A stretch of DNA of 64,000 nucleotides from Sedimentisphaerales bacterium (lineage in GTDB: Bacteria > Planctomycetota > Phycisphaerae > Sedimentisphaerales > SM23-30): assembly GCA_963666285.1 (NCBI GenBank), contig OY762711.1. The stretch is one strand, 5' to 3'. How positions within the stretch are numbered: position 1 is the first letter of the stretch; each line of letters starts with the position of its first letter. Under the pieces are notes generated by a model, which was not told the DNA's origin, did no database searches, and saw nothing but the letters and a program-made list of their open reading frames with translations. The translations under genes were made by a program, and so were the position numbers. This document shows positions 3,866 to 59,826 of this stretch, piece after piece.

Positions 3866-3900
3866 ATCATCTCCAATATTATCTCAGCCTAATATAAACC

Positions 3901-4680: not shown

Positions 4681-4683
4681 ATT

Positions 4684-15060: not shown

Positions 15061-16182
15061 TTATTTACCAGCTGCTCCTGCAACATGCTCCTTACAGATA
15101 AAAACTACTTTTTCAGCAATTTTATCTAACGGCAAAGATATATCAACACCACCATGTTTAACCGCTTCATTAGGCATGCCATAAACCACACAGCTTTTTT
15201 CATCCTGGGCAATATTATACGAACCTGCTTCTTTCATTTCTGCCATACCCCTGGCACCATCATCTCCCATGCCGGTCATAATTACACCAACGGCATTCTT
15301 ACCGGCATACCGAGATGCCGACCTGAAAAGAACGTCAACTGAAGGTCTATGTCTGGACACTAAAGGACCATCCTTTACTTCAACATAATACCTAGCCCCA
15401 CTCCGTTTTACAAGCGTGTGCTTTCCGCCGGGAGCAATTAGAGCTCTGCCTGGAAGCACTGTATCATTGTCTGAAGCTTCTTTGACATTTATCACACATG
15501 TATCGTTAAGCCTTTGGGCAAAACTAGCGGTAAATTTTTCAGGCATATGCTGGACGATGACAATACCCGGACAGTCAACAGGAAGAGCCTGAAGAAATTC
15601 TCTCAAAGCTTCTGTTCCTCCGGTGGAAGCACCGACAACTGCAATCTTTTCAGTAGTCTTGATCATCGCCGATGAACTGGAGCCTTTTGAGAGCATAACA
15701 TCAGCACTGAGTTTTTCCTGAACGGGCCTGGATGGCAATGGTGCAGACTTGACAGCCTTCCGTTTAGATAAATTAGACATCGCAGCAGCTTTTACCGCAT
15801 CACATATGGTCACTTTTGCTTCTTCAAGATACTTTTTAACACCCAGCTGAGGTTTCGTAATAATATCAATTGCACCGTATTCCAGAGCTTTCATAGTCGT
15901 CTGGCACCCTTTTTCAGTCAAACTCGAACACATTACAACAGGTATTGGGTGCTGAGCCATGATCTTCTGCAAAAAAGTGATTCCATCCATCCTGGGCATT
16001 TCAACATCCAGGGTAATCACATCTGGTATTTCATTACTCATTTTACTTGCAGCAATAAATGGATCACCGGCAACAGCCATAACTTCCATATCAGGATCAG
16101 ACTCAATGATACTGGACAAAGTTTGCCTTACTACCGCAGAATCATCTACTATTAAAACTCTTATTTTCTTCTGGTTAACCAT
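15061..16182 (-). CDS. cheB: Chemotaxis methylesterase response regulator CheB
   Basis: REC domain (VDDS, TLDVEMP) plus [25 protein letters not shown]. Confidence 0.97.
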
Positions 16183-16204: not shown

Positions 16205-17095
16205 CTATATTGCATTATCATCATTTTTAGGTTTTTGAAAAACCGTTGGTATCATTCTATTAAGCGGCAAATTAACACCATTTAGAGTTTCTGAATGTCC
16301 AACAAAAAGATAACCCCCAGGGCGAAGTTGCCGGTACAGTTTTGTAATTACTTCTACCTTGGTTTGCCAGTCAAAATATATTATAACATTACGGCAAAAA
16401 ACAACATCCATCATTGTTGATATACCATAATTGTCATCCATAAAATTCAACCGTCCAAAGATTACTTTTTGACGCAGTTCTGGCACTACCCTATACTGGC
16501 CTTTTCTTTTGCCTTTCCCAGTCATTAAATATTTATTTTTATATAATCCAGGAATAGGATCTATTATTTCTTTGCTATAAACAGCTCTTTTAGCTTCTGA
16601 CAATACGCTATGCGCTATATCAGTTGCAAGAATCTTATATGAGCCGGTATTACCAGAAAAAAACTGGTCAAGAACCATTGCGAGAGTATACGGTTCCTGG
16701 CCCGAGGAACATCCGGCAGACCAGAAATTTAGTATTTTATCCTTTTTGAACTCTGGAGATTGGGTCATTTCCGGCAAAACCTTTTGCTTAAGGAACTCGA
16801 AATGTGCCGGTTCTCTGAAAAAATCTGTTTTATTGGTGGTAATCACATCGATCATTGATATTATTTCCATTATACTATCAGTTGCACTATGGATATAATC
16901 ATAATATTCCTGATACGATGATAAACCTAATTTTTTCAAACGTTTATAAAGCCTGGAAGACATCATGGAACGCTTGGCATCTTTTAATTCTATACCACAT
17001 TCTTCATAAATTAATTCTCTGAAGAACTGCATCTCCTTATCACTCAATAAAGGAATACCTGCATCGATATTATCTTTTGAGCTTTTATTTCCCAT
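16205..17095 (-). CDS. cheR: Chemotaxis methyltransferase CheR
   Basis: TTNKTDFFRE, WSAGCSSGQEPY, FCRNVIIYFD, GHSE. Confidence 0.97.
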   Translation of the reverse strand: MGNKSSKDNIDAGIPLLSDKEMQFFRELIYEECGIELKDAKRSMMSSRLYKRLKKLGLSSYQEYYDYIHSATDSIMEIISMIDVITTNKTDFFREPAHFEFLKQKVLPEMTQSPEFKKDKILNFWSAGCSSGQEPYTLAMVLDQFFSGNTGSYKILATDIAHSVLSEAKRAVYSKEIIDPIPGLYKNKYLMTGKGKRKGQYRVVPELRQKVIFGRLNFMDDNYGISTMMDVVFCRNVIIYFDWQTKVEVITKLYRQLRPGGYLFVGHSETLNGVNLPLNRMIPTVFQKPKNDDNAI

Positions 17096-17195: not shown

Positions 17196-17711
17196 CTATT
17201 CATCATTATCCGAATCGCTGCTTAATTCCTTTAACGCTGAAAGTTCTTTAGCGGTCAAAACTCTATTAATATCCAGAATGATAACAAATTCTTCATCTCG
17301 CTTACCCATTCCTTTGATGAAATCAGTATTTAAACTAGTTCCGATCTTAGGTGCCGGCTCAATATTTTGCGGGTCAATATCTACTACTTCCTGAACCGAA
17401 TCAGCAAGGGCACCAATTTGCAGCATTTCACCGCCCAAATCGATTTCAGCAATGATGATACAAGTATCTACCGTACGTTCAGCTGCTTCCATGCCAAGAT
17501 TTAACCGTAAATCAATAATTGGCACAACATTACCGCGCAGGTTGATTACCCCCTTCATATAATCAGGTGTGCGGGGAATCTTGGTTATATTAACCAAATC
17601 AAGAACTTCACGTACAGCAGTAATTTCAAGGGCAAAATTTTCTTCACCTAAAGTAAAGGTTAAATACTGATTAGTATCAATTCCAACTTCTATCATGCTT
17701 TCTGTTGTCAT
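17196..17711 (-). CDS. cheW: Chemotaxis coupling protein CheW
   Basis: QYLTFTLGEE, GVINLRGNVVPIIDLR; ATG 17711 has an AAGGAG RBS (track start 17720). Confidence 0.95.
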   Translation of the reverse strand: MTTESMIEVGIDTNQYLTFTLGEENFALEITAVREVLDLVNITKIPRTPDYMKGVINLRGNVVPIIDLRLNLGMEAAERTVDTCIIIAEIDLGGEMLQIGALADSVQEVVDIDPQNIEPAPKIGTSLNTDFIKGMGKRDEEFVIILDINRVLTAKELSALKELSSDSDNDE

Positions 17712-17746
17712 TTTAAACACTCCTTGTATATATAATTATTATGTTA

Positions 17747-19846
17747 TTATTCAAAATCCCTGTCATCTATATCATCAATATCTGCATCCAGATCATAAGT
17801 AACTCCGCTGACAGAAGCAGGCATACCGGCAATTGCAGGTGCAGGGTCCTTATATTTTGCTCCAGACTGCGTTTTCTTACCTGAAGCAACCTGTCTTTTA
17901 CTATTTGGCATACTGGAATTCAATTTGAAAAACTCTGAAGTGCGAAGCAATTCTTCAGCCTGGCTGGCAAATTCCTCACTGGAAGAAGCCATCTCTTCGG
18001 TTGATGAGCTATTTTGCTGAACAACCTGGTCCATTTGATGAATACTTTGAGTTACCTGCTCAATGCCGGTAGCCTGTTCCTGACTGGCAGTGCGAATTTC
18101 TTCAACCAGATCAGCAGTTTTTTTGACTCCAGGCACAATTTCTTCAAGAAGCTTGCCTGCCTCCTCGGCTATCTCAACACTATCGGTTGATAATGTACTT
18201 ATTTCCTGAGCTGCGTTTTGACTGCGTTCAGCGAGTTTTCGGACTTCAGCAGCAACAACGGCAAAACCTTTGCCGTGTTCTCCTGCTCGTGCCGCCTCAA
18301 TTGCAGCATTCAAAGCCAGCATATTTGTCTGCCTGGATATTTCTTCTATTATATTGATTTTATCGGCAATACTTTTCATGGCTTCAACAGTCTTACTTAC
18401 CGCAATACCACCATTTTCAGCATCGTTTGAAGCTTTCTGAGCTATCGAAGAAGTCTGTTGCGCACTATCAGCATTCTGCTTTACTGTACTGCTCATCTCT
18501 TCCATACTACTTGATATTTCTTCAATACTGGCAGCTTGTTCGGAAGCACCCTGGGCCATCTGCTGTGAAGTCGAACTCATCTGTTCGCTACCAGAAGCAA
18601 TCTGCCCGGAAGCACTCTGTACCTCTGAAGCAAATGTTGTCAGATTCTCGATCATCTCATTAAATGCAGCTACAAGCTTATCCTTTTCTGATCTCTTTTC
18701 TGCTGAAACAGTCAGATTTCCGCTGGCAATCTCTTCTGCAACATGAGTTACCTCATTCAAGGCACTAACTAATGAGTTAATTGAATTCAATAACATGCCT
18801 ATCTCATCTTTACTATTGGATTTTACATCAATATCTAAATCACCATGCGCCAAATCTTCCATAATTTTAACAACACGTTTTATTGGGTTTGTTATTAGTG
18901 AAGCAAGTATCAGTGCAAAGGCAATGCCAACCACTATTGCAGTAATACTTCCACCAATCATTATGCTGTTGGCACGGGTAATGGTGCTTTCCATTTTTGC
19001 TTCCTGATCTGCTCGCAATTCTTCACAAGTCTCAACTACAACTTTAGTAGAATCGACAAGCTCTACGTACAGCTCATCCATCTTAATCTGTAAATTGTTC
19101 CATTTCTTACAGGATTCTACATAATTTACTACTGCTTCAAGAGTTATTTCGACTCGATCTTTACTATCCTTCTGTTCAGTTCTAGTTGAGAGCTCTTTTA
19201 GCAAAACTTGCAAATCACCAAAATGTTTGTACATTTCCTCAGCAAATTTTTCATCTTTCAAATCCATATATTTCATGTTTGCAATACGACCTTTACTGAG
19301 GAGAATGATTGCCTTACTAGTAGAATCTCTTTTCCACAGTTCATTAGCGACAAATTCACTGCTTTTATCACTAAAATCAATTTCACTCTTTACCTGTTCC
19401 TCCTGAAGTTCTCCTGTATATTTAATAACATCAGTAGCCTTAGCAACCATATTGTTATACTCTTTTTGCTGCTGTTCAGCACTAGTGACCCAATCCTTAA
19501 ATTTATTATAATACAGATCGGTATTTTCCTTAACTTTTAATACTTTTTGCTTTTCCTTTGGATCTTCCATTTTTTCATGAAGCTGATCACATTGCTCTAT
19601 CATCGTACTAAGTTTTGAATATACTTCATCCCTATCTATATCTAACCTGTCGGATATATATGATTTAGCGGCCAGCCTGGCAGACTGTAATTCTTTAATT
19701 AAATTGTTAGAGTTATCAGCTCTTTCAACAATTGCAGTAGTGTCACTCATACTTTTAAGGCCTATATAGCCCACAACAGCTGTCAGAAAAAGAACAACTG
19801 CAAAACCTGTAATAATTTTTGTCCTGATTTTCATTTTATTTAGCAT
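17747..19846 (-). CDS. Methyl-accepting chemotaxis protein (helical periplasmic sensor, HAMP)
   Basis: Two TMs, [37 protein letters not shown] hairpin. Confidence 0.95.
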
Positions 19847-19963: not shown

Positions 19964-22900
19964 TTAACTAAAATCATCATCATCCACATCATCCATATCA
20001 TCTAACTGGTAATCAATACCATTGTTTTTTGACGTCTTTGAAACAGAATTACTTACGGCACCAACTGGAACTGATACCGGAGCACTAGATTTCACCTGTT
20101 TCTTTGGAACTGATGCAGATCTTTTTGCAACATTATCACTTAGAATAAAGAATTCAGAAGTGCGTAGCAGCTGCTCTGCCTGGCTGGCAAATTCTTCACT
20201 GGTAGATGCCAGCTCTTCAGTTGCGGAGCTATTTTGCTGTACAATCTGATCCTGCTGGTGAATAGCCTGAGTAACCTGCTCTATGCCGGTAGCCTGTTCA
20301 GAACTTGAAGTATTTATTTCTTCAACGAGCTCGGCAGTCTTTTGAATGCCTGGTACGATTTCTTCCAGCAGTTTCCCTGCACGTTCAGCAACTTCAACGC
20401 TTTCTGTCGATAAAGTACTGATTTCCTGGGCAGCATTTTGACTGCGTTCTGCCAGTTTGCGTACCTCAGCTGCTACAACTGCAAATCCTTTACCATGTTC
20501 ACCGGCACGAGCTGCTTCAATAGCAGCATTCAATGCAAGCATATTAGTCTGTCTAGATATCTCTTCGATGATATTAATCTTATCTGCAATACTATTCATA
20601 GCTTCGACAGTACGAGATACGGCATTACCGCCTTCCTGCGCATCGGCAGCGGCTTTTTGAGCAATAGAAGCTGTTTGTTGAGCACTATCAGCATTTTGTT
20701 TCACAGTACTGCTCATTTCTTCCATACTGCTTGATATTTCTTCAATACTTGCAGCCTGTTCTGACGCACCTTGTGCCATTTGCTGTGAAGTAGAGCTCAT
20801 CTGCTCACTGCCAGAAGCTATTTGACCCGAGGCACTTTGCACCTCAGAAGCGAACCTTGAAAGGTTCTCTATCATAGTATTGAAAGCTTCAATCATCCTG
20901 TCTTTATCGGAACGCATTTGAGCACTTACAGTTAGATTACCTCCAGCAATTTCTTCAGCAACACCTGAAACTTCATTTAATGTCCTGACCATATTTGCAA
21001 ATGCTTCAAGCATTCTGTCTTTTTCAGAACGCTTTCGGATATCAACTGTAAGATCACCGACAGCAATAGCTTCAGCATTATCTGCCACCTCATTAAGAGC
21101 ATGCACCAGAACATCTATAGAATTCAATAACATGCCAATTTCATCTTTAGTATCACATTCTACATTCACATCAAGATCACCCTTTGCGAGATCATCCATA
21201 ATCTTAACAACACGTAGAATAGGCCTGGTTATACCTCGGGTAATGAAAAATGACAATACAAGACCAATCAGAATTGCAATCGCCAAACCACCAATCATTA
21301 TCTTAGTTGAGCTTGAAAGATTTTCTGCGGCAGCATTTGCTATTTCTTCCGTATTAGTTATACCGGCATCAGCTGTCGTTTTACATGCTTCAATAACCTT
21401 TTTACCTACAAGTTCACGCTTAGAACCTAAATCGTCAAGAATCTGCCACTGATCGAGAAACGCCACTAAGCCATCGGAATATTTTCTGCCGGCAGCACTT
21501 GTATTTTCAATTTGCTGAATATTAGATTCTTTACGTGTAATCTCTTTCAATTCTGCAAATTTCCCATTAAGATTTGCGAAATTCGCAAGTGCATCACGCA
21601 TTATATCCGGGGACCCCAGAGCCTGGGATTTAAACCCCTTAATCCTGGCATCATTACCAAGATTTACAATTTCATTGACCAAAGTAATCTTTTTATGACG
21701 TTCGTGCAAATCCTTACTCAGCTTTTCCTGCTGTCCCTTCAAGAATAATTCACACTGTGCAACATATTTACCGGCAGAACTATCCATCCCTTTGCGAATT
21801 GCATCAAGCTCTTCAAAGTTTTTTAGATATGCCTGCATAGCAGCAAGGTAATTATCTGCAGCCATTTCAGTATTCTGGATTTCTTTCAGATTAATTTCTT
21901 TACGAGTAATACTGCGCAGCTTAGCTGTAATCTGTTTAATTTCATCAAATTTGCCCATGGCATCTCTCATCATTTGAGGATTTTGTTTTGCCTGTGCCTT
22001 AAAGTTAGCAACTCTAACGGTATTAACTAAATTAATAACGTCATTTACCATGTTAATTTTTTGCATACGTTCAGATAGATCTGCACCTTCTTTTTTCATT
22101 TCTTCGTTCATTGCCTCATTTTGACTGGCAAGGAAATCTCTGCAATTCTGCATATAAACTGCAGCATTCTCATCCATCTTTTTACCGGCTGCACTCATAG
22201 CCCTATCTGTCTCTATATATGACGCCATATTTGCAGAATAGTCAGCAGCAGCCTGCTCAGTTTGATCTATTCGATCAATATCTTCAGCATCTCTGGTAAT
22301 TTTTCTCAATTCTCCAGTATGTGATTTCAAAGCAGCTAAAAGATCAATAGCTTCCTGCATAACACCCATATCATCAGAACCCTGTGCCTTAAAGTTTGTA
22401 ACACGTACCTTTGTACCCAGATTTACAATTTCAGTTACCAATTGCACTTTTTTCTGACGTTCATCCAAATCAACTTTGAAAGCCTGATTTTGCTCATCCA
22501 GGAAATCAAAGCAGTTTTTCATATATGCCGCAGCATTTTCGTCTAGACTTTTGCGTTCATTGCTCATACTTGCAATAGCCTGCTCTGTTTGAGCCATTAA
22601 ATCAGCATATTCATTAACAGCATTTTGAGCATTATCAACCTGCCCCTGCAATGCTTTAAGATTTTTAGCTTCCTTTGCTAGTTCAGCTGCTTCCCCCAGA
22701 TGTGTCTGCATAGCAGCCATTTCTTCTTTGGCCTGAGAATAGAAGCTATCCTTTTCGCTGAGACTGTAGCCGCGCATCTCGTACATAGTTCTGTTGGCCG
22801 AACCTCTAAGATCAACAGCCACTTTAACTTCAGGAATATATTCCTTAGCCAGTATCTGAGATTCTTTTTCAACCACACTCATATTATAGATAGCCAGACT

Positions 22901-22978
22901 GCCTAACAATAAAGCAATGACAATCAAAGCCGTAAAACCCAATGATATTTTGACACCTAACTTAAAATTTTTAAACAT
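19964..22978 (-). CDS. Methyl-accepting chemotaxis protein with internally repeated helical sensor domain
   Basis: Two TMs, tandem HAMPs, MCP signalling hairpin; three repeats of about 125 aa in the periplasmic part. Confidence 0.95.
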
Positions 22979-23139: not shown

Positions 23140-24666
23140 CTATAATGCTTCCTTTATATTAGATTCATTGGCATATTGTTTCTGCCGCCGACCAATACAA
23201 TCTTTAACGATTTCTCCAATATTGTATGAGCATTTCGCATCCTGCATACACTTTGTACCTGTATCGCGACTGGTAACCCATGTTACCCCAAGATGATCGC
23301 CTGAATAGTCATACATAACCCTTGCATATTCGGCCTGAGGATGATACATAACACTTATTTGCGATAGTAAAAAATCTTCAGCTGTAAGTTTTTCAATAAT
23401 AGCTTGCAGACTATTAAGGTGGCGAGCTATGATCACAAAATGTACATACCTTCTTTCATATTTATAAATATCATACGTCTTGATTTTCTTAACAATAGAG
23501 CCAACAAGGTCTGTAGCATTTCCACCGTAGACATTATCGAGCGGGCTTACATGAGCCAGATAGCCAAATTTACCGGGATAAGATGCAATAACCGCGGTAC
23601 AAGTTGACACACCCATCGTCTGTAGCATTTCATTATTTCTTGCCCTGACAAATTCATCCATGTCCACCTGTCTAACAACCGCATCATCTGAAACAACAGA
23701 TTGATTCTTATCCTCTGTAACATAGGAGTTCTTCAAATATTCAATTATCCGGCCATTATAAAAACCCTGGTGTTGTTTAAAATGTTCTGTAGTAATTTGT
23801 GCTTCATCCATCTTGACAACAACAAGCCATTTTGCGCCAAGAAACTCAACTACTTCAAATGAAGTCAAAACCTTGAATCCACGATAATCAACAACAACTC
23901 GATTTCCAGAGCCTTCCAGAAACTTTGGCTCGATATTACAATCATCCAGCTTAGTTTTTAAGATAGACTCATCACTTACAAAGTTAGACTCGGTCAACAT
24001 GAATCCCTGTCTGTTTACTACAATGGCCTCATTAGTTTCACCAAGACTTTGCGTCCCGGCAAAAAGAGAGTTGATTTTATTTATAGCAAACCTGAGAACA
24101 ATCCATCCAATTTGCGTTCCATCCTTATATGCCGGTTCAACAAAAAAGCTGGTTGGCTCCTGTGACACGCCATAAAAATGGAAATCGACAAATTTTTCAC
24201 TCTCAGGTTTATCCATCAGACATTGAGCCAAAGGAGTATGCTGAAATTTTTGATCAAACAGATTTGTACCACAATCCGGTTCCTTTCGAATACTAAAAAA
24301 TACATCACCACGCATATCTACAAACAATATATCATAAAATGTCAGCCAGTTTCTAATGTAATGCTCCTCAAAAGCATTTTTAACTTCCTGGATTTTACCT
24401 GCAACCTCAGCGGGAGGAACAGTCTCCTTCGACGCTTCAATGTACTTTCTATTTAAATCGAAGAAATTAATCATAACGGTATCTGTTCTGACATTCTGAG
24501 CCTGCTGATGGATGCGGTCGCAAAAATCACATAACTGTTTTACTTTAATATCACGCACACCGTCCAGGTGAATATATGCCCAATCATACGGCCCCTTATC
24601 CGCCATAGCTACCAGCTTACTCACACATAAAAATAGCACAAAAATCACATTTAGATATAATTTCAT
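23140..24666 (-). CDS. Exported Cache-domain protein fused to a C-terminal CheD-like (Cys-His) deamidase domain
   Basis: Signal peptide; YDILFVDMRGDVFFSIRKEPDCGTNL, LGETNEAIVVN, DYRGFKVLTSF, KWLVVVKMD (dCache); VDMDEF...LQTMGVSTCTAV...GYLAHV (CheD-like). Confidence 0.65.
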   Translation of the reverse strand: MKLYLNVIFVLFLCVSKLVAMADKGPYDWAYIHLDGVRDIKVKQLCDFCDRIHQQAQNVRTDTVMINFFDLNRKYIEASKETVPPAEVAGKIQEVKNAFEEHYIRNWLTFYDILFVDMRGDVFFSIRKEPDCGTNLFDQKFQHTPLAQCLMDKPESEKFVDFHFYGVSQEPTSFFVEPAYKDGTQIGWIVLRFAINKINSLFAGTQSLGETNEAIVVNRQGFMLTESNFVSDESILKTKLDDCNIEPKFLEGSGNRVVVDYRGFKVLTSFEVVEFLGAKWLVVVKMDEAQITTEHFKQHQGFYNGRIIEYLKNSYVTEDKNQSVVSDDAVVRQVDMDEFVRARNNEMLQTMGVSTCTAVIASYPGKFGYLAHVSPLDNVYGGNATDLVGSIVKKIKTYDIYKYERRYVHFVIIARHLNSLQAIIEKLTAEDFLLSQISVMYHPQAEYARVMYDYSGDHLGVTWVTSRDTGTKCMQDAKCSYNIGEIVKDCIGRRQKQYANESNIKEAL

Positions 24667-24723
24667 TTAATTACTCCATAAGACCTTTTCATAAATTTAA
24701 TCGTAATTGCCATGTCGGCACTA

Positions 24724-27087
24724 TTAACAAAAATCTTCATCGCTAATATCCTCAACATCATTCAGATTGTAATCTATACCTGAATTTGCCGGGACACTAA
24801 CTGGTTGATTATTAACTTTATATCTTTCCGCTTTTGATTCAGGTTTTTTAATGGAAGAATAACTTGCTTGAGTAATTCCTTCCAGCTTGAAAAACTCAGC
24901 GGCTTTAAGTAACTGATTTGCCTGTGCCGCAAATTCTTCGCTGGTAGAAGCAAGCTCTTCAGTCGCAGAACTGTTTTGTTGAACGACAGTATCTAACTGA
25001 TGAATCGACTGCGTCACCTGATCTATGCCGTTAGCCTGCTCATTGCACGAAACGTTGATTTCCTGCACCAATTCCGCAGTTTTCTGGATCCCAGGAACAA
25101 TTTCCCTGAGTAAATGGCCGGCACGCTCAGATATCTCAACACTCTCAGTAGAAAGGGTACTAATCTCCTGGGCAGCATTTTGACTGCGTTCTGCAAGTTT
25201 TCGTACTTCCGCTGCAACAACTGCAAAACCCTTGCCATGCTCCCCTGCACGTGCAGCTTCGATAGCAGCATTAAGAGCAAGCATATTAGTCTGACGAGAT
25301 ATTTCTTCGATAATATTGATTTTATCTGCAATGCTCTTCATTGCATCTACGGTCTGTTCAACAGCCTTTCCACCCTCTTGGCCGTCAGAAGCGGCTTTCT
25401 TTGCAATTGAGGAGGTTTCCTGGGCATTATCTGCATTTTGTTTGACAGTACTATTCATTTCTTCCATAGCACTGGATACTTCTTCCAAAGACGCTGCCTG
25501 CTCAGTAGCTCCTTGAGCCATTTGCTGTGATGATGTACTAATCTGTTCGCTACCTGAAGCTATCTGACTGGAAGCAGTCTGGACATCTACCGCAAACATA
25601 CTTAGATTCTTTATCATATCATCTAAAGCTTCCATAAGTACATCTTCATCTGATCGTTTGTCAGCATTTACTGTAAGATTTCCAATGGATATTTCCTTAG
25701 CTAACTCAGAAACATTCAGCATCGCATCAACAAGCTCTTTTAAGGAATTACCAAGTTGATCAAAAACTTCTTTTACTACATGAGTATCTTCATCTGCTTT
25801 ATCAGCTTCATAGTTGATCTTCAAATCACCTATTGCAACTTTACCAAGAGCTTCAGAGAATTTTTTCACCTCATTTTTCTGGAAGGTGTCAATTTTTTTC
25901 ATGCGGTTTTCAGCATTCTTTATTTCTGTTATATCAACTACATATTCCAATGCTCCAATTATATTGCCTTCAGCATCCTTAACAGGTGCCCCGGTGTACA
26001 TAATTGGAATATTCAAACCATCCGGATCACATACAGTTTCACCGGTATTAACTTTACCATCCTGCATTGCCTGATGACAGCGACATTCAGGAGTCTGACA
26101 ATGCGGGGTCTTAAACAGATTATAGCATTTTTCGCCCTGAACCTGTTCCGGAGTTTTACCCATAACTGCAGCACCTGCCGGATTCATATAAGTAACATTA
26201 TAATCTTTGTCAATTGTCATGATAGGAGTCGGCAGGTTATTCATATTATCAACCGACTTCTGGGCTTCTTCCATTGCTTTTTTCACTTCTGTCTGGTCGA
26301 CAACAATCTCAAGCCCCCCAATAACCTTGCCATCATCATCTGTAACCGGAGCTGCTGTATAACTTATTGCCATTGTCTGTCCATTTGGATGTGCAATAGT
26401 TTCAGAACTACAGGTTTTACCTTTTTGCATACATTGACCAATAGCACATTTGTCACTGCGACAATCTCCTGTTTTAAATATATCATAGCATTTTATACCT
26501 AAAGCCTGTTCCCTGCTTAGTCCACCAGCATCACAACCTATTTGATTAAGATAAAGAACATTGAACTCTTTATCTACTATCATCGCCGGTACTGGAAACG
26601 AATCAATATATCCAACAAGAACATCAGAGAGAGTATTTCCACTTTCTATCAGTTGTGCAAATGATCCATTAAATAGACTTGTATCGCCTCTATGACGGAG
26701 TTTCCCGCGTTTGATTGTACTTATAAGAGAATTGAACTCGGATATTGCAGCATTAAAAGTCTGCGAAAGATTACTTAGTTTATGGCCAATTGCACCGAAA
26801 TTATCATTAGATTCAAAAGGAGGAGCTTCGGAAAAGTCGCCTTCATTCATTCTGCCAATAAATTGATCCAATACTGAACATTTTTCATTTAGATCTTTAT
26901 TCAACAGGGTAGCAAAAAAAAGAGAAACTAATAACGACACAACAATTGTCCCAATTGCTGCCGATATTATTATACTATTGCCATTACCAGAAAAATATAT
27001 AATGCCTGCCATAGCGACAACCGGCAAAATTGCAATACATAAAAATGTTAATAACAATTTCTTAGAAAATATAAGCTTACTCCACAT
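24724..27087 (-). CDS. MCP with two cytoplasmic Cys-rich PAS domains and no periplasmic domain
   Basis: Two adjacent TMs, HAMP, two PAS domains ([34 protein letters not shown]), MCP hairpin. Confidence 0.93.
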
Positions 27088-27172: not shown

Positions 27173-29287
27173 TTAAACTAAAGCCAGTTCCTCTTCTTTC
27201 CTGGCAGTTTCCATTACACCGGCAACATCAAGAATTAGGGCAACATTACCATCACCCATAATTGTGGCACCTGATATCTCTGTAACATCTTCGTACATTT
27301 TACCTAACGATTTAATTACAGTTTGGTAATCACCAATGATATGATCAACTACTATCCCCATTCTTAAATCATTCATATTAACAATGACTGCTTCTTCAAT
27401 AGAAGAAGCATTACCTGGGATTCCAAATATTTCTCTGAGTCGCACAAATGGAACCATCTCTCCTCTTACTTTTATTAGATTTCTATCTTTACTCAAAGCA
27501 TTAATAAATTCATTCATCTCCAGGCATTCTTCCACTGCACTTACAGGTACAACATATTTATCCCCTGCTACATCAACAAGTAATCCATCAATAATGGCAA
27601 GTGTAAGCGGTAATGAAAGCTGAATGGTAGTACCTGACCCTAGCTTACTGCTAATATCTACTTTTCCTCTAAGAGCTTCAATTTCTCTCTTTACAACATC
27701 CATGCCAACACCACGACCTGAAAGGTTTGTCACTGCCTGAGCTGTTGAAAATCCCGGCATCAATATCAGGCCAAATATTTCTTTATCAGTCATTTCAGCG
27801 TCTGGCGATACCAATCCTTTCTCTATCGCCTTATTTAAGATTCTATTTTTGTCCAGACCTTTTCCATCATCATGAATTGTAATTACAACGTTTGCTCCTT
27901 TATGAGCAGCAGATAATTTAATAGTACCTTTTTGCGACTTACCTGCTGCTGATCTTTCTGCGGGAATTTCTATGCCGTGATCCATACTATTTCTAATCAA
28001 ATGTACAAGAGGATCGGATAAACGCTCTATAACAGTTTTATCCATTTCTGTTTCAGCACCTTCAGTTATTAAGTCAACATCTTTATGCAACTCTGTGCAA
28101 AGATCTCTTACCAACCTGCGAAAACGATTGAACTGGCTCCCAATAGGCATCATTCGAATATTCAGCACGCTATCACGAAGCTCACCCGTCAGACGCTCAA
28201 CCTCTTCAACCGGCTTCGTTAATTCAGCTAGTGCATTATCAGCAGATATTTCAGACAATTGTGCCTGAGTAATGACAAGTTCACCAACAAGATTTATAAG
28301 TCTGTCTAATTTATCCGAGCTAACACGTACACTTTCCTGTTTTACTGACTCTTTCTTTATTTTAACCTGGCTTTGTTTCTGTAAAGCCTCGGTAATTTTT
28401 CGCTCGGTAACTTTTTGCTCATCAACCAGTATTTCACCCAATTTTTTATCTGATTGTTTTTGTAAATCCAATGCTTTTCCTAATTGCTCATTATTTATAG
28501 CATTTTCATCAACCAGTATTTCACCTAATTTGGGAATCTCCATCTCTGGATCAATATCATCATCTTCAATTTCTTTATTATTGACCTGATCAATCACGAT
28601 GTGGCTTTCACCTTCAACAAAAATAAATACATCTTTAACAGCATCTTTACCTTTTGGAGTTGTAAGGTCAACATCCCAGGAAACGTAACATAATTCAGGA
28701 TCAATTTCATCAAGTAAAGGAATATTGCTTGTATTAACAGATATTTCAGCTACTCCTAATTCACTCAAATCTTCCAGTAATACTGCCGGGTCCATTCCAG
28801 TTGAAAATATTCCAGTTTCCGGCTCAAAGAATATATGGAAGTCTTCAGGCTTTCCCATTGCCTGTGGCTGACTTTCATTTGCCAATTTTTTTGGCTTTTC
28901 TTGAGTATCAGATCCATTACTCATAATCATTTCCAATGCAGCAATAATACTTGCATTAGTCTCAAGATCATAAGCTCCACCATCTAACATTGTTTTTATC
29001 TGATCTCTACTGGCTAAAATTAAATCGATTAAATCTTTATTAATTGCAACATTACCAGAACGTACTTCATCCAGACATGTTTCGACATGATGGGTGAAGT
29101 TAGCAATATCATCAAAACCAAACATTGATCCAGAACCTTTAATCGTATGCATTGCTCTGAACAATCGATTAATTGCATCATCATCATTTGGATCATTTTC
29201 AATATCAAGGATACACTCTTCTATCTCAACCAAAAGCTCTTCAGCTTCCTGGCGAAATACTTCACTAAATTGATTTTGCTCACTCAT
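27173..29287 (-). CDS. cheA: Chemotaxis histidine kinase CheA
   Basis: Hpt LFRAMHTIKG, dimerisation LDRLINLVGEL, HATPase HLIRNSMDHG, SGRGVGMDVV, CheW-like P5. Confidence 0.97.
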   Translation of the reverse strand: MSEQNQFSEVFRQEAEELLVEIEECILDIENDPNDDDAINRLFRAMHTIKGSGSMFGFDDIANFTHHVETCLDEVRSGNVAINKDLIDLILASRDQIKTMLDGGAYDLETNASIIAALEMIMSNGSDTQEKPKKLANESQPQAMGKPEDFHIFFEPETGIFSTGMDPAVLLEDLSELGVAEISVNTSNIPLLDEIDPELCYVSWDVDLTTPKGKDAVKDVFIFVEGESHIVIDQVNNKEIEDDDIDPEMEIPKLGEILVDENAINNEQLGKALDLQKQSDKKLGEILVDEQKVTERKITEALQKQSQVKIKKESVKQESVRVSSDKLDRLINLVGELVITQAQLSEISADNALAELTKPVEEVERLTGELRDSVLNIRMMPIGSQFNRFRRLVRDLCTELHKDVDLITEGAETEMDKTVIERLSDPLVHLIRNSMDHGIEIPAERSAAGKSQKGTIKLSAAHKGANVVITIHDDGKGLDKNRILNKAIEKGLVSPDAEMTDKEIFGLILMPGFSTAQAVTNLSGRGVGMDVVKREIEALRGKVDISSKLGSGTTIQLSLPLTLAIIDGLLVDVAGDKYVVPVSAVEECLEMNEFINALSKDRNLIKVRGEMVPFVRLREIFGIPGNASSIEEAVIVNMNDLRMGIVVDHIIGDYQTVIKSLGKMYEDVTEISGATIMGDGNVALILDVAGVMETARKEEELALV

Positions 29288-29332: not shown

Positions 29333-29692
29333 TTATTTCAGAACTTTCTTCACCACTGCTAATAACTGATCCGGATTGAAAGGCTTTACAATCCATCCTG
29401 TTGCTCCGGCAGCCTTTCCCTCGGCTTTTTTCCCATCTTGAGATTCAGTAGTCAACATTACAATAGGAATGAACTTAAATTCAGACTTGCTCCTTACCTG
29501 TCGGATCAATTCCAAGCCATCCATATTAGGCATATTTAAGTCTGTAATCAGCATATTGATACCATTTATCTTGCTAAGAGCATCTTTGCCATCAATTGCT
29601 TCCACAACATCATAACCTGCCTGCTTCAATGTCATACTGACCATTTGTCGCATACTTGCTGAATCATCTGCTGTCATAATTAGCTTACTCAT
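29333..29692 (-). CDS. cheY: Chemotaxis response regulator CheY
   Basis: ADDS, TDLNMP, MLTTES, WIVKPF; ATG 29692 has a GAGG RBS (track start 29740). Confidence 0.93.
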   Translation of the reverse strand: MSKLIMTADDSASMRQMVSMTLKQAGYDVVEAIDGKDALSKINGINMLITDLNMPNMDGLELIRQVRSKSEFKFIPIVMLTTESQDGKKAEGKAAGATGWIVKPFNPDQLLAVVKKVLK

Positions 29693-29705
29693 TTTTTTAT
29701 CCTCA

Positions 29706-30008
29706 TTAATTGACATCAAGACTTTTCCAGTCACACCCAATTATTTTAAGCGATTGGATAAACTGCTCTTGTGGATTAGTTAGCATCATTTTAACATTTT
29801 TCATCTTTGCGCTTTTACTGGCACTTACCAGTACTTGAAATGAAGCTGTATCACATCTTTCTACCTTGGCGAGATCTATGACAACCTCATCAACATCATC
29901 AAATGCTGTTATCAATTCTTCCTTGAATTGATTTATCTGGTATATTGATAACTCACCTTCAATTTGCAAAGTAGATTTTTTATTTTCCTTAGTTAAATTC
30001 AGTTCCAT
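29706..30008 (-). CDS. STAS domain protein
   Basis: IEGELSIY, VVIDLAKVERCDTASFQVL; typical position beside cheY-cheA. Confidence 0.85.
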   Translation of the reverse strand: MELNLTKENKKSTLQIEGELSIYQINQFKEELITAFDDVDEVVIDLAKVERCDTASFQVLVSASKSAKMKNVKMMLTNPQEQFIQSLKIIGCDWKSLDVN

Positions 30009-30029: not shown

Positions 30030-31874
30030 TCAAAATAGTTCTATATTATCTCCAAAATCATCACTCTCAGAAGTTTGTGAAACACAGGATTCCATATTTT
30101 CCTCATCGTCAAATAAGTCTATTGAACCAAATTCATCTGAAGATGAATTTGAATTATTACCGCCTAATGTTTTACTATGAATCTGCCGCTCACTATCCAT
30201 AGTATAACTATCTCTAATTTTCTGCATTTCCTCTTCAAGCTGTGAATCAGTATATTTACAAAATTTCTCAAGCTCAAGTTCACATGAATAAAGCTCATCT
30301 TTTTGCTTTTCGAGTACATCCAATATTATTTCCATGAAGCTGGAATATTTTATTACCCGATCTACTTCCATATCTATTCTGGATATCTCTTGCTTAGTTT
30401 TTTCAGAAGCCTGTTCATACTTTTTATAAGCAACATCTATCGTGTCTATATTATTTGTTAGCTCCCCAATATACTTTTCCAAATCACTTTCTGAATTTTT
30501 CACAGTCATTTGATCAGACAGTTCAGTTATTTTACTCAATACCTCAGTTACTTCCTGCCCCAGCTCTTGTGAAGTTCCTGCACGCCCATACACTTCTTCA
30601 GTTAATACTGCAAGTGTCTTACCATCCTGTCCCAGCCTTTCAGTTAGAACAATTGCATTTAATGCCTTAAGACTAAGTTCACGACTAATTTTCCTGATAT
30701 CCCTGATATATGTCGTAAGTTTCATTGTTGTTTCATGTACCATATCTATGGTCTGGCTTGTCTGACTACTCAAACTTGTGGCATGTCCGACAAAACTATT
30801 GAACTTGTAAAGTTCGTCTATGAGATTCTTAAAAGCATTATCCCTATTGGCCAAATCAGCTTCATTATCCCCCGGCCCTCTATTTAGAAGTACCAGCTCA
30901 TCTCCTATATTTGAAAACGCTGTTCTAATATTGTTATAAGCCCGGTCAATATCAGAATGGACATTATCAATTTGTGCTACCTGTAATGATGTTACAAGAT
31001 GTGCATATGCCAGGTCCTTCTTTCCTCTTTCAGACAACGAAATTCGTTCTGAAATTTCATCGACAGCCTCTGTAACATGCTCTAAACGTTGTCGAACAAT
31101 ATCATGAAACTGCATTGATATCACAATATCAGAAACGTGCTTTGAAATTACTTTGAAATGATCCAATACCTTTTGAAGCCATTCATTTGAAATCTCAACC
31201 AAACACCGGGCTCTTTCAGTTGCACTTCTAATTTCTGTATCAGCCTTTTTATGAAGCTCCAAAATATTTTCAAGTCCACCTCGAATTTCAGATTCAGCAC
31301 TGGATTGCCTGACCCTGGCTAATTCCAAATCAGTTGTCATATTACATGAAATATCATTTATATGATCAGAGAGATTCTGAATCTCCTCAGCTAAAGTGGC
31401 AAATATTGCTTTTGATTTTTCAGTTCTGACACTTTCCATTGAAATATTTGTTCTCACTATTTTTAAATAATGTGAACTATCACGAAATTTATCACACTGA
31501 GTAAGTAACTCTTCTATTTCATTTTTTAAAGAACTAATAGCATCAACTGAAATACCAATATTTTTATTAACAAACATAAATGCATTCAAAGTGTCATCTG
31601 CATTTTTCCCTAACACATTAAACGCACTTTGGTCATCAGACATATCAATAATGCCTGCAGTATCCGTTATAGTCGCCCTAAGCTTTTCAATTTCTCCATA
31701 CAAACATTGAGAGTCATTACACATTGACATAAACTGTGCATCAGCATTTTTCAGGAGATTTTTTATAGCACCAGAAACTTCATTTAATTTCTTACATAGA
31801 TCAGATACATTTGATTTATGACTAAAAAACCCTAATTTGCGAAGTTTGTTTTTGAATCTAATAAATTTAAGCAT
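30030..31874 (-). CDS. Cytoplasmic divergent MCP-like chemotaxis protein
   Basis: Two degenerate hairpin tips (NISMESVR; LKALNAIVLTERLG), ISMQFHDIVRQRLEHV, C-terminal GDNIELF. Confidence 0.8.
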   Translation of the reverse strand: MLKFIRFKNKLRKLGFFSHKSNVSDLCKKLNEVSGAIKNLLKNADAQFMSMCNDSQCLYGEIEKLRATITDTAGIIDMSDDQSAFNVLGKNADDTLNAFMFVNKNIGISVDAISSLKNEIEELLTQCDKFRDSSHYLKIVRTNISMESVRTEKSKAIFATLAEEIQNLSDHINDISCNMTTDLELARVRQSSAESEIRGGLENILELHKKADTEIRSATERARCLVEISNEWLQKVLDHFKVISKHVSDIVISMQFHDIVRQRLEHVTEAVDEISERISLSERGKKDLAYAHLVTSLQVAQIDNVHSDIDRAYNNIRTAFSNIGDELVLLNRGPGDNEADLANRDNAFKNLIDELYKFNSFVGHATSLSSQTSQTIDMVHETTMKLTTYIRDIRKISRELSLKALNAIVLTERLGQDGKTLAVLTEEVYGRAGTSQELGQEVTEVLSKITELSDQMTVKNSESDLEKYIGELTNNIDTIDVAYKKYEQASEKTKQEISRIDMEVDRVIKYSSFMEIILDVLEKQKDELYSCELELEKFCKYTDSQLEEEMQKIRDSYTMDSERQIHSKTLGGNNSNSSSDEFGSIDLFDDEENMESCVSQTSESDDFGDNIELF

Positions 31875-33106: not shown

Positions 33107-34681
33107 CTATTTTTTCTTCTTCTTGAAATACATAGTATAATCAATACCCAGCTTTTCGATCTTGTATCTCACCATCCTGGAGGTAATACCCAGTTCACGT
33201 GAGGCAGCAGCGACATTGCCATTAGATCTTTTAAGTGCATCAATAATTAAATCTCTCTCAATCATTGACATTTTTGATTTTAGCGTTCCAGTTTCCTGGA
33301 GGGTAGGAAGTTCAGGAGTTTGCAGCGTTGGCGGAAGATTATACCCATGTATGACACCGTCATTACTTAAAAGCACAGCATGTTCTATACAGTTTTCAAG
33401 CTCACGGATATTTCCCGGCCAGTGATATGCCATCAGCATATTAATAGCCTGAGTACCAATTCGCCTAATATTTTTATTCATCTTAGCTGAATATTTTTCA
33501 ACAAAATGATTTGCCAGCAATAAAACATCATCTTTGCGTTCGCGCAACGGAGGTAAATGAATTGGAAAGACATTTATACGATAATATAAGTCCTGGCGAA
33601 ATTCGCCTTGCTGCACTGCCTTTACTAAATCTTTATTCGTTGCCGTTATAACACGAATATTAGATTTTATCACCTCATTACTTCCAACGGGCTGAAATTC
33701 ACGTTCCTGCAAAAAACGCAGCAGCTTAACCTGAATAGCCAGGCTGAAGTCACCAATTTCATCAAGAAACAAGGTACCGCCATCAGCTTCTTTTATTAAA
33801 CCAATTCTTGAATTAACTGCTCCGGTAAACGCCCCTTTCTCATGACCAAAAAGTTCGCTTTCTAACAGATTTTCACTCATTGCGGCACAATTAACCCTGA
33901 TAAAAGGTTTATGACACCTCGGTGAGCTGTAGTGTATAGCAGAAGCAACCAACTCTTTACCTGTTCCAGATTCACCTGTTATCAAAACAGTAGTATCAGA
34001 AGAGGATACCTGGTGTATCATAGTATAAGTTGCCCGCATACTTTTTGAGTTACCAATTATATTTTCCGGACGATACCTTTCTTCCAAGGCATTATGTAGT
34101 CGAGTCTTTTCCGCCTCAAATGCTTCACGCTCGAGCTTAACCATTCTACGGTTCTTAATATCATGAGCCAACATACAGGCAACAATACTCAAGACACGCT
34201 TCTTATCATTTAGATTCACCGCTTCATCATAAGCCAGATCAACAGAGAGAGTCCCTGTCACTTCCTGCCCTAATGTGATAGGAACACATATAAAGCTCAA
34301 CTCATTTCCATCACTTTCCTGCCTGCTGTGTACCCTGCCACAAAAACGAGGCTCTTTGGAAACCTGAGGTACGACTGCGGCTTCACCGGTTTCTAATACC
34401 CTGCCAGTTATACCCTCTCCCATAGAATAACGCATTTCATTCTGATTAGAACTTCGCATGTTACTGGCAGCTTCTACTACAAGCTCGGAACCATCCGGTG
34501 ACAAAATCATCACCGTGCCGCGCTTCATCTGAGCTTCTAACTCAAGAACCTCAAGTATCTCTAGCAGCATTTCACGCTGGCCCGATCTACTGGCAAGTAT
34601 TTTTGCTATTGCATACAATGCTTCCAGATCTTTTTTTCTGCCTATATTATTCATAACTTCTAAAGACATAATAGTAACCAC
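33107..34681 (-). CDS. nifA: NifA-like sigma54-dependent activator (GAF-AAA+-HTH)
   Basis: GAF ([15 protein letters not shown]), [33 protein letters not shown], Fis-type HTH; near the nif genes. Confidence 0.75.
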
Positions 34682-35084: not shown

Positions 35085-37232
35085 TTAATTAAATTCATCA
35101 AAATCATCATTTTCAAATGGAATTGCCTCTTCTGCATTAGCAGCACTTGTTGTCGCTACATGCTTTACAGGCTCTTTCTCAATAGGAGCCGAAGGAGATG
35201 AGCCAGCTATTTCATGAAACGCCTTATCTGAACGGCTCAACTTTGGAACCGATATATCGTTATGGGGAAGCTTGGTTTTAACAGTCTTACGATTGCTTGA
35301 ATCTCCTCCAACCATTTTAGCCAGATTATGAACAATTTCATTTACTGTTTCAGCCTGAGCATTCAATTCTTCTGCAGCAGATGCTGATTCCTCTGCGGCT
35401 GTTGCATTTGATTGAGTAACACCATCCATTTGAGCAATAGCATCCCTGATCTGATTTATTGCTGCTGCCTGCTCATCATTTGAAGTTGTTATATTGCTTA
35501 CATATGTTGTTGTTTTGTCTACAGATTCAGCGATTTCATTCAAAACACTACCAACTCTAGATACAATTTCAACACCATTATTAGCATTTTTCACTGATTC
35601 TTCAATCATTTCTGTCGTACTGCGAGCAGCTTCGGCCGAACGCATCGCCAAGTTTCTCACTTCTTCTGCAACAACCGCAAAGCCTTTACCTGCTTCGCCC
35701 GCCCTTGCAGCTTCTACAGCAGCATTTAACGCAAGTAGATTTGTCTGAAACGCAATTTCATCAATTGTTTTAACAATTTTGCTTGTTTCTTCAGATGATT
35801 TCTGTATGTCATGAATTGCTGCACTCATTTGTTCCATAGCCTCAGTACCACTAATCGTTGAAGCGTTTACTTCCTGGGCATATTGATGTGCCTGTCTTGC
35901 ATTTTCAACATTTTCATTTGTCTGATCAGAAATCTGGGACATTGAGCTGGTAATCTGCTCAATTCCAGCAGCCTGTTCACAACTGCCATTTGCCAAGGCC
36001 TGTGAAGTACTTGACACCTCTGTCGAAGCTGATGCTACCTGCTCTGAACTCACAGTCATTGAGTCTATTGCTTTTTGCAGTACAACAATAATCGCCTTGC
36101 AGACTAATATTGATATAATAACAGAAAAAATAGAAATAACTATTCCTGCGATCGATGAATACTTAACATCAGATTTCATACTATCGCACATTTCTTTTGA
36201 TTTGACACTTGCTTTTTCACTTATATCATTAATATAAACTACCTGATCTCCAATACGTTTTTCAAACATCTCTGTCATTGCATTAATCGTATCACGAAAT
36301 ATGTCAAAAGCAACTAATGAATTTTTGCTAGATTCATTCCTGGCAATCTTATTATCTATGCTCCTGGAAGATAAATCCACAACGGCAATTGAATTTTTCT
36401 GCCACTGTTCATAATAACCCTTAAATTCCTTATACACCAGGTTCATATCATCGTCAAATACACCGGAAGCCTTTTCTGCCCTATCTGATACTTGCTGTAT
36501 ATTAGACATGTTATCCTTCACTATTGACAACATTTCTTCAGGAGAATTACTTTGCATTGCCTGCATTTGGGCAAGATACGCCTGATATGCATCGCGATCT
36601 GCATTTAAAAGTAATGAATAACTATTATATATATCATTCAATTTTGACTTGGTAATGTTGTTATCATCAGTAACTGTTTTCAGCTTCTCTTCCAGTAAAA
36701 GTTCAATTCGATCTATTGCATCCCTCATGAGATCAAACTGCGCAACACTATTAGACATAAGCTCTTTTCGCTGCTTGAAGTTTTCAGCCAGTTCAATTGA
36801 CATTTTTACTACTTCTCGACTGCTTTCTTTCCATACTCTAAACTGCTCTTTAAATGTTTCGTACTGAGCATTCATCTGTTTGTCGAACTGAGATGAGGAT
36901 TTGTTTACCCGATCATTAACCTGATTAATATTTTCCATATTATCAGCGTCAAGCCGAACTAACTTCTCATGATCATTGATATCCATAGCCTCAACTTGAG
37001 CCAGATACGCCTGATATGCATCACGATCTGCATTTAGAAGCAATGCAATAGCATCATTTAAAGCTGTAATTTCCGGTATATCTTTTTTTACAATAGGTAT
37101 AAATACATCATTAACGGTCTCCTCTACCTCAGCAGTCACTTGTGCCATTTGATATGAGTTAAAACCCAAAAATAGTAAAAGACCGGCAACTGGAATAAGT
37201 ACTGTTAATAATATTTTTGTCCTGATAGTCAT
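35085..37232 (-). CDS. Methyl-accepting chemotaxis protein, HAMP-less, duplicated four-helix sensor
   Basis: IDEIAFQTNLLALNAAVEAARAGEAGKG; LLLNADRDAYQAYLAQ occurs twice; C-terminal DFDEFN. Confidence 0.93.
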   Translation of the reverse strand: MTIRTKILLTVLIPVAGLLLFLGFNSYQMAQVTAEVEETVNDVFIPIVKKDIPEITALNDAIALLLNADRDAYQAYLAQVEAMDINDHEKLVRLDADNMENINQVNDRVNKSSSQFDKQMNAQYETFKEQFRVWKESSREVVKMSIELAENFKQRKELMSNSVAQFDLMRDAIDRIELLLEEKLKTVTDDNNITKSKLNDIYNSYSLLLNADRDAYQAYLAQMQAMQSNSPEEMLSIVKDNMSNIQQVSDRAEKASGVFDDDMNLVYKEFKGYYEQWQKNSIAVVDLSSRSIDNKIARNESSKNSLVAFDIFRDTINAMTEMFEKRIGDQVVYINDISEKASVKSKEMCDSMKSDVKYSSIAGIVISIFSVIISILVCKAIIVVLQKAIDSMTVSSEQVASASTEVSSTSQALANGSCEQAAGIEQITSSMSQISDQTNENVENARQAHQYAQEVNASTISGTEAMEQMSAAIHDIQKSSEETSKIVKTIDEIAFQTNLLALNAAVEAARAGEAGKGFAVVAEEVRNLAMRSAEAARSTTEMIEESVKNANNGVEIVSRVGSVLNEIAESVDKTTTYVSNITTSNDEQAAAINQIRDAIAQMDGVTQSNATAAEESASAAEELNAQAETVNEIVHNLAKMVGGDSSNRKTVKTKLPHNDISVPKLSRSDKAFHEIAGSSPSAPIEKEPVKHVATTSAANAEEAIPFENDDFDEFN

Positions 37233-42430: not shown

Positions 42431-42446
42431 AACAATCTGCGTGCCA
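42431..42446 (-). promoter_or_regulatory. Sigma54 -24/-12 promoter of the nifB unit
   Basis: TGGCACGCAGATTGTT (GG-N10-GT). Confidence 0.7.
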
Positions 42447-47312: not shown

Positions 47313-47364
47313 CCTGTTTTCCTATCAGTTATTTATCTACTTACTGATACTGCTTAATCCTACT

Positions 47365-49008: not shown

Positions 49009-49024
49009 TACAATCTGCATGCCA
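49009..49024 (-). promoter_or_regulatory. Sigma54 -24/-12 promoter of nifEN
   Basis: TGGCATGCAGATTGTA (GG-N10-GT). Confidence 0.7.

Positions 49025-58977: not shown

Positions 58978-59826
<849 letters not shown>

Follow-up and report, generated by a model that had tools for sequence, protein, structure and literature searches.

A 64,000-nucleotide stretch of contig OY762711.1 (GenBank assembly GCA_963666285.1), from a Sedimentisphaerales bacterium of the Planctomycetota and referred to throughout as the window, carries within a chemosensory gene cluster a gene for a predicted exported protein of 508 residues (P0001) in which a dCache sensory domain is joined to a domain with the fold of the receptor deamidase CheD. 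On present sequence evidence the protein is fairly likely to be functionally coupled to a family of chemoreceptors with helical-repeat periplasmic domains, an association hinting that receptors may be adjusted from the outer side of the membrane. The gene and the features defined in and beside it are:

23140..24666, minus strand: gene for P0001, the predicted exported dCache plus CheD-fold protein (508 residues, ATG start)
24674..24677, minus strand: Shine-Dalgarno-like GGAG, 7 nucleotides 5′ of the ATG (sequence)
24601..24666, minus strand: Sec-type signal peptide, residues 1–22, predicted cleavage after Ala22 (hydropathy, −3/−1 rule)
23788..24594, minus strand: dCache domain, residues 25–293 (Pfam dCache_1, Foldseek, structure alignment)
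23236..23685, minus strand: CheD-fold (CNF1/YfiH-like cysteine hydrolase) domain, residues 328–477 (profile, Foldseek, structure alignment)
23617..23619, minus strand: Thr350, aligned to CheD Thr21 (profile alignment)
23599..23601, minus strand: Cys356, aligned to CheD Cys27, predicted nucleophile (profile alignment)
23551..23553, minus strand: His372, aligned to CheD His44 (profile alignment)

An earlier note, made from the sequence alone, had read the gene as a signal peptide and Cache domain, without a second transmembrane segment, fused to a CheD-like deamidase with a Cys-His site; the signal, the single hydrophobic segment, both folds and the intact site are borne out, and the deamidation and ligand gating that the note deduced are putative. 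The likeness to CheD, which the note saw in a motif at residues 334–375, is recovered by profile, Foldseek and structure alignment, with CheD the best match in all three. Modelled alone, the C-terminal domain has a predicted local distance difference test score (pLDDT) of 93.8. A Foldseek search with it, as the note had proposed, puts T. maritima CheD on top (E 3.6e-8), and the same protein (2f9z) heads an exhaustive structure alignment against 48,161 chains (Z 15.2, root-mean-square deviation (rmsd) 2.3 over 134 residues). Next come YlmD and NTAN1 (both Z 10.6), YfiH (9.8), and CNF1 and BLF1 (8.5); all eight matches above Z 7 belong to the CNF1/YfiH-like superfamily, and the first unrelated structure appears at Z 5.8. 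A sequence profile compared with the PDB gives CheD (2f9z_C, E 0.024) as the sole match below E 1, the full-length profile returning nothing real. No Pfam or NCBIfam model names the domain (weak matches to XopAK, E 0.03, and Alba). The nearest ESM Atlas clusters are unnamed, with NTAN-type (0.84) and CheD (0.81) clusters as leads only.

Thr350, Cys356 and His372 align with Thr21, Cys27 and His44 of CheD, which PMC7022378 names as the triad, the superfamily triad being Cys, His and either Ser or Thr or a carbonyl. Among 250 representatives below 80% identity, Cys356 and His372 are invariant (250/250 each) and the Thr350 column holds 246 Thr, 3 Ser and 1 Ala; two residues that follow the catalytic His, Asp377 (249/250) and Tyr380 (245/250), are almost as constant. 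Of 341 rows that extend over this site, 340 have both Cys356 and His372, the exception being a chemoreceptor matched through its Cache domain, and nine further gene copies all keep these conserved residues. From the alignment and the shared hairpin topology we infer that Cys356 and His372 are juxtaposed, and the modelled domain is probably an active cysteine hydrolase. It was not seen fused into larger proteins (none among 128 candidates of 890–2540 residues, weak evidence); 55 shorter matches to it, at most candidate stand-alone domains, lie mostly on short contigs.

Hydropathy finds a single strongly hydrophobic stretch in P0001, at the N-terminus: after the initial MK a hydrophobic core occupies residues 3–15, and A-M-A stands at 20–22. 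The best 19-residue window (2.24) begins at residue 3; the runner-up (1.59, residue 266) is not counted as a second transmembrane segment because it forms a β-strand in the model. A hydrophobic N-terminal segment is present in 215 of 238 full-length relatives, and several of the 23 lacking it look mis-started or cut; an internal membrane helix is absent from 237 of the 238 rows, the exception (P0218) being a chemoreceptor. Of 120 close relatives, 101 have enough N-terminus to score cleavage: the residue at the predicted −1 position is small in 100, the −3/−1 rule holds in 95, and none has a Tat motif. A loose pattern finds a lipobox-like Cys in 39 of the 238. Cleavable, lipoprotein and anchor-like N-termini in different members all imply the same side of the membrane. 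P0001 is thus very probably exported and extracytoplasmic, the topology that the earlier note had deduced.

The sensory half is a complete double-Cache fold. Pfam dCache_1 (PF02743) matches residues 110–284 (E 3.3e-8; 33.8 bits, under the curated cut-off of 45), and a precomputed PF02743 match is present in most relatives. An AlphaFold2 model of the whole protein, built from 115 aligned relatives (pLDDT 92.3; predicted template modelling score (pTM) 0.87), shows the features of dCache domains, an extended N-terminal helix together with a pair of PAS-like modules; residues 25–293 align with 2p7j at Z 19.8 (rmsd 2.6 over 234 residues). The closest sequence kin of this domain are the periplasmic dCache domains of chemoreceptors, and the pocket-region residues common to both are conserved. 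Some chemoreceptors, often in the same clusters, carry two or three dCache domains in tandem that are homologous to the one in P0001:

L163 2930-5677: tandem homologous-dCache receptor
L166 10298-13060: tandem homologous-dCache receptor
L167 9976-12738: tandem homologous-dCache receptor
L168 12392-16039: tandem homologous-dCache receptor
L014, L057, L098, L104: further receptors of this kind

The family is broad. One search returned 177 near-full-length relatives (120 listed); a profile search reached further, and the best 150 listed are nearly all of about 500 residues. The counts over 80 loci of the gene rest on the best 80 of 111 genome loci. These span Planctomycetota, Thermodesulfobacteriota, Bacteroidota, Spirochaetota, Fidelibacterota and others, largely anaerobic lineages, and include a cultured carrier, Desulfatibacillum alkenivorans DSM 16219 (locus L040). 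A quick tree of 78 rows, from which the truncated loci L049, L061 and L070 were left out, splits the family into a core clade (53 rows) and a distant group (25 rows). No transporter, catabolic or envelope-protein gene recurs in the 80 neighbourhoods. Two Fidelibacterota loci, in clusters with a receptor of related dCache sensor, have a Gcw_chp outer-membrane-type gene one or two genes away:

L073 5044-5634: Gcw_chp gene
L082 12166-12771: Gcw_chp gene

Within the window the gene belongs to a run of same-strand chemosensory genes, listed here in order, with the P0001 gene between the PAS receptor and the type A receptor:

30030..31874, minus strand: methyl-accepting chemotaxis protein (MCP)-like coiled-coil protein, cluster head (Pfam)
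29706..30008, minus strand: STAS protein (Pfam)
29333..29740, minus strand: cheY-like receiver (Pfam)
27173..29287, minus strand: cheA (Pfam)
24724..27087, minus strand: chemoreceptor with two PAS domains, upstream of P0001 (Pfam)
19964..22978, minus strand: type A chemoreceptor, 1004 residues, candidate partner (Pfam MCPsignal, HAMP, weak HBM/4HB)
17747..19846, minus strand: second chemoreceptor, whose helical periplasmic domain is of the related type B (Pfam; 161 bits against the type B profile)
17196..17720, minus strand: cheW (Pfam)
16205..17095, minus strand: cheR (Pfam)
15061..16182, minus strand: cheB, immediately 3′ of cheR with no cheD in between (Pfam)

The MCP-like coiled-coil protein also heads the cluster in related loci L004, L021 and L039. 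The genome has a wider chemotaxis set: seven flagellin matches, three cheA-like and two cheR-like genes, and about 23 receptor open reading frames (ORFs). Four receptors (17747-19846, 19964-22978, 24724-27087 and 35085-37232) end in a short acidic C-terminal tail with a late Phe, which we take to resemble CheR-tethering peptides. Promoter and terminator scans gave matches at chance level, and a scan found no sigma-54 or NifA-type site 5′ of the cluster or of the P0001 gene. Just upstream of the cluster lies a GAF plus sigma-54 activator gene (33107-34681), a close look-alike of which (L001 4-978) precedes an ordinary cheD in L001; sigma-54 activators recur near many of the related loci.

The earlier note had called this an operon lacking cheD, with cheR and cheB adjacent. 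The adjacency is as described and there is no cheD in the window; at the scale of the genome a qualification is needed: a Pfam CheD (PF03975) search finds two ordinary cheD genes elsewhere, and those two places are its only matches. The accompanying hint that P0001 fills in for an absent CheD does not survive: besides the two genomic copies, an ordinary cheD shares the cluster with the P0001-type gene in L021, L057 and L096, and replacement of a missing cheD was rejected. P0001 itself has no PF03975 match, CheD is not among the 25 families listed for 78 members, and comparison of profiles with seven ordinary CheDs gave a probability of 0.2% (shallow template). The GGA, G-x-x-N and D-x-GG-x-x-x-R motifs of those seven are missing from the family consensus. 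P0001 resembles CheD in its fold, in a Thr-x5-Cys with a His on the returning strand, and in being encoded in chemosensory clusters; it differs in being predicted to be exported, fused to dCache and coexistent with ordinary cheD. By sequence, then, it is neither a member of the CheD family nor a stand-in. The genome's second ordinary CheD (L002 1348-2271) seems, from its sequence, to be joined to a receiver-like domain, and a cheB gene comes next.

The case for a tie to particular receptors comes from gene neighbourhoods, where relatives are not independent samples. Across the 80 loci, 61 genes lie directly downstream; 23 have an MCP signalling domain, and 22 of these, together with four cut or split genes, have in common a periplasmic domain of 400–660 residues built of helical repeats, with weak 4HB/HBM matches and in two related types, A and B. 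By profile search, 36 of the 80 loci have a receptor of either type no more than 10 kb away (a partly circular count, 26 of the loci having built the receptor profiles). For a further 22 the receptor lies in another part of the genome (20 of 43 in one search and one in each of two others), which brings the total to 58 of 80. A cleaner test comes from five copies, in four genomes, that did not serve to build the profiles: none exceeds 56% identity to a profile row, two are near-identical to each other, and each immediately follows a type A receptor, with the gene order reversed; one of these genomes holds two such cassettes. New copies L168–L171 are without such a neighbour, and two of them have the receptor on another short contig.

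Co-occurrence among genomes follows the same pattern. Among 301 sampled genomes from the class to which the window belongs, the gene is present in 9, a type A receptor in 35 and both in 7, all 9 carriers falling among the 151 genomes with any chemoreceptor; in a second class (174 genomes) the figures are 12, 20 and 10. A receptor background of about 12% of genomes thus compares with 7/9 and 10/12 of gene carriers, in samples some of whose genomes supplied receptor-profile rows. In 18 full-length pairs the cytoplasmic tails fall into two length classes (6 and 12) 14 residues apart, which we take to be 34H and 36H; gene and sensor domain stay paired while the tail class changes, and the gene co-varies with the sensor at rho 0.74 versus 0.28 with the tail. 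Of 27 conserved residues specific to the core clade, 13 lie in the second Cache module (P0001 alignment positions 221–285), a possible partner surface; this is a weak hint because the core clade is defined by similarity to the query.

The candidate partner in the window has transmembrane segments at residues 11–29 and 560–578, with a 530-residue periplasmic domain between them:

21302..22891, minus strand: type A periplasmic repeat domain, helical repeats of about 125 residues (repeats with C-x-x-F-L-x-x-Q)

The repeats carry C-x-x-F-L-x-x-Q with Gln163, Gln286 and Gln416, one invariant Gln per repeat (21/21, 13/13 and 21/21), and Cys409 is likewise constant (21/21). The type A and type B copies just downstream of the P0001 gene are the sole strong ones among the genome's roughly 23 receptors. 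ESM Atlas neighbours of the type A domain are 4HB_MCP_1, HBM and TorS clusters (a lead only). These domains form an unnamed family in which two to four helical repeats are stacked, every repeat keeping a Cys and, seven residues from it, a Gln; across loci the periplasmic domain measures about 290, 400, 530 or 660 residues. In L003 (10021-12519) a type B sensor is followed by HAMP and PAS without an MCP domain, the gene being cut by the contig end, and type B sensors may therefore also serve non-chemoreceptor outputs. In L011 (11725-14356) the partner receptor gene lies in three consecutive ORF pieces, through frameshifts or assembly errors.

The earlier note had seen a puzzle in the topology: a periplasmic deamidase is on the wrong side of the membrane for the usual receptor Gln targets. 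The helical periplasmic domain of the neighbouring receptor is a candidate answer. P0001 would be exported by Sec and act as a two-domain sensor-enzyme outside the inner membrane, serving receptors from their outer face; in this lineage the partner would be the neighbouring receptor with stacked four-helix repeats. The CheD-fold domain would dock on the receptor's periplasmic helices, as CheD does on cytoplasmic receptor helices, and hydrolyse the side-chain amide of a Gln or Asn, which would change how the receptor signals or how tightly it binds its ligand. Docking or activity would be set by a small molecule bound to the dCache domain. We propose this control because the enzyme domain occupies the place of the second membrane helix that takes the Cache signal: in the model the helix after the second Cache module (residues 288–313), which in receptors continues into that membrane helix, is connected to the enzyme domain by a short linker. 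The high pTM points to a definite placement of the two domains relative to each other, which would be compatible with gating.

Published work supplies the precedents. Extracellular Cache signals are described as leaving only through the C-terminal membrane helix (Upadhyay et al., PMC4822843). CheD deamidates Gln in receptor α-helices, and protein deamidases that share its fold include CNF1, BLF1 and NTAN1 (PMC7022378); bimodular four-helix sensors such as TorS and CtpL obtain their stimulus from partner proteins in the periplasm (PMC8050422). An exported partner that deamidates receptor repeats is favoured because CheD acts on receptor helices and TorS and CtpL take input from periplasmic partners. 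Architecture, folds, conserved triad, export signal and gene linkage are computed; activity, contact, substrate and gating we infer. The mechanism as a whole, in which P0001 docks on and deamidates the helical repeats under control of a Cache ligand, is tentative, possible rather than probable. Somewhat doubtful too is its wider form: a ligand-controlled deamidase that edits the periplasmic sensor of its own chemoreceptor at several repeat sites, an outer layer of adaptation or memory mirroring CheD, CheB and CheR.

A number of observations weigh against this proposal. Only 15 of 80 metagenome receptor loci hold the gene (many are short, and several of 13 kb are without it), and receptor-positive genomes lacking it number 28 of 35 and 10 of 20 in the two class samples. 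A receptor is nearby in 4 of 25 distant-clade loci versus 32 of 53 core-clade loci, the distant-clade neighbour genes being mixed, and 22 of the 80 genomes, many incomplete, have no strong type A or B receptor. Three loci place a P0001-type gene beside receptors with a homologous dCache domain. The excess in co-variation vanishes within tail classes (0.85 versus 0.81; 0.54 versus 0.44), and physical linkage alone could explain the gene-sensor co-variation. The invariant repeat Gln is not above background (Gln 6/33 versus 117/530 columns conserved). Finally, the C-terminal half of CheD is unmatched in sequence (the profile comparison at 0.2%), and substrate recognition may therefore differ.

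Three lines of argument were given up. The mirror-tree correlation was rejected as evidence of co-evolution beyond the tail swap, nearest neighbours agreeing in 6 of 18 pairs for sensor and tail alike; the conserved repeat Gln was rejected as evidence of substrate; and a homologous-dCache receptor was rejected as general partner for this genome, which has none.

The alternative that survives best, in our estimate somewhat unlikely, makes P0001 an exported amidohydrolase of small molecules, which produces the compound sensed by the neighbouring receptor from an amide, or locally destroys an attractant so that the receptor stays sensitive, the dCache domain binding substrate or product. Helicobacter, where urease assists the sensing of urea, offers a precedent. 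YfiH and YlmD, which share the fold and are among the next-best structural matches (Z 9.8 and 10.6), act on small molecules, and the invariant Asp377 with the near-invariant Tyr380 could close a small pocket. It would also explain why the distant clade has no fixed receptor neighbour and why, even so, all 25 tested genomes without a type A match have chemoreceptors, which occur in 151 of the 301 genomes of the class sample. Against it, the protein-modifying CheD is clearly the nearest fold (Z 15.2 versus 10.6), and the neighbourhoods show no recurrent transporter or catabolic gene.

An improbable reading is that no partner is turned over: P0001 would be a co-receptor, acting on the helical receptor in the manner of a periplasmic binding protein or co-component, whose CheD-fold domain serves as docking module and whose Cys reacts with the stimulus to give an adduct that is covalent or redox-sensitive. 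Conservation of the gene pair fits, as does the Cys kept by the receptor repeats (Cys409), and there are precedents in TorT-TorS and PstS-CtpL (PMC8050422) and in VtrA/VtrC (PMC9214523); a docking module, however, would have no need of the full Thr-Cys-His kept over 250 diverse sequences.

Quite improbable is control in the opposite direction, the receptor holding or releasing an enzyme that acts on a third substrate in the envelope (a surface protein, the N-terminal Asn or Gln of an exported protein, or peptidoglycan amides). LapD and the periplasmic cysteine protease LapG are the model for such an arrangement, which would account both for receptor linkage and for the independence of the distant clade; substrates of this kind are known for the fold from NTAN1 and YfiH/PgeF. 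However, no envelope-protein gene recurs in the 80 neighbourhoods, and we know of no chemoreceptor that signals outward.

That P0001 is an independent exported hydrolase carried in signalling islands, with no functional tie to a receptor, is very improbable: 21 of 25 distant-clade loci are unlinked and the receptor often stands alone, but linkage occurs in both gene orders, in several phyla and in duplicated cassettes. We give scarcely any credence to a cytoplasm-facing CheD substitute, its N-terminal helix a reverse anchor or unused, that deamidates the usual receptor Gln sites, which the operon without cheD and the Gln in methylation-type helices of the receptor tails might suggest, in the face of the cleavage-site rule (95/101), lipobox-type signals (39/238), ordinary cheD in L021, L057, L096 and twice in this genome, and freely exchanged receptor tails.

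The window also contains, at 38959-59805, nitrogen-fixation genes interrupted by plus-strand TldD/PmbA and corrinoid/URO-D genes. A protein with a PP2C phosphatase domain (1119 residues) and three FHA-domain proteins cluster at 506-6140. Three sigma-54-like sites each lie 70–270 bp upstream of a nif gene; matches overall are at chance level, and their placement alone is suggestive.

58978-59805: nifH-like gene
54762-57868 and 45939-48756: four nitrogenase component 1-type genes
41087-42361: nifB-like gene
38959-40098: homocitrate synthase-like gene
42432-42446, 49010-49024 and 59947-59961, minus strand: sigma-54-like −24/−12 sites ending TTGT, not TTGC

The proposal of an exported deamidase that serves its neighbouring receptor can be set against known systems. 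The earlier note did not recognise the architecture as described, and in the literature searched, with subscription journals largely outside coverage, we likewise saw neither a Cache-CheD fusion nor deamidation of receptors in the periplasm described. With dCache_1 sensors P0001 shares the full double-Cache fold; those sensors sit between two membrane helices with a cytoplasmic output, whereas the Cache domain of P0001 does not. A widespread exported Cache-enzyme fusion breaks the rule that Cache signals pass through a membrane helix, whatever its substrate. CheD is cytoplasmic and without an export signal, deamidates Gln in cytoplasmic receptor helices and binds CheC, whereas P0001 and 215 of 238 relatives carry a predicted export signal. 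To our knowledge all covalent tuning of chemoreceptors (methylation, demethylation, deamidation) is cytoplasmic; if P0001 does modify a receptor, that rule too is broken.

Like TorT-TorS, PstS-CtpL, MBP-Tar and VtrA/VtrC (PMC8050422 and PMC9214523), P0001 is a predicted exported sensory protein encoded beside a helical-periplasmic receptor, a combination found in the core clade and weak in the distant one. Unlike those binding-protein and lipocalin partners, it consists of dCache plus a catalytic domain, its receptor often stands alone, and binding is putative. The architecture thus departs from what defines CheD, membrane-bound Cache sensors and binding-protein partners, and the function proposed for it is putative.

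The study also delineates a likely partner for P0001, an unnamed family of helical receptor domains with multiple repeats, and the proposal is directly testable: both proteins offer soluble domains, a catalytic Cys is predicted and a carrier is in culture. LapG is a periplasmic Cys-His enzyme tied to the outer domain of a membrane c-di-GMP receptor, LapD; P0001 differs from it in fold (no transglutaminase-like match stood out), in having its own sensor domain and in its putative chemoreceptor partner. With the CNF1/YfiH-like superfamily (NTAN1, YfiH/PgeF/YlmD, CNF1, BLF1) it shares the β-sandwich fold and the Cys/His/Ser-or-Thr triad. We know of no superfamily member fused to Cache or acting periplasmically on the cell's own signalling system, and none came up in the literature searched; P0001 would add an exported, self-directed branch to CheD, CNF1 and YfiH.

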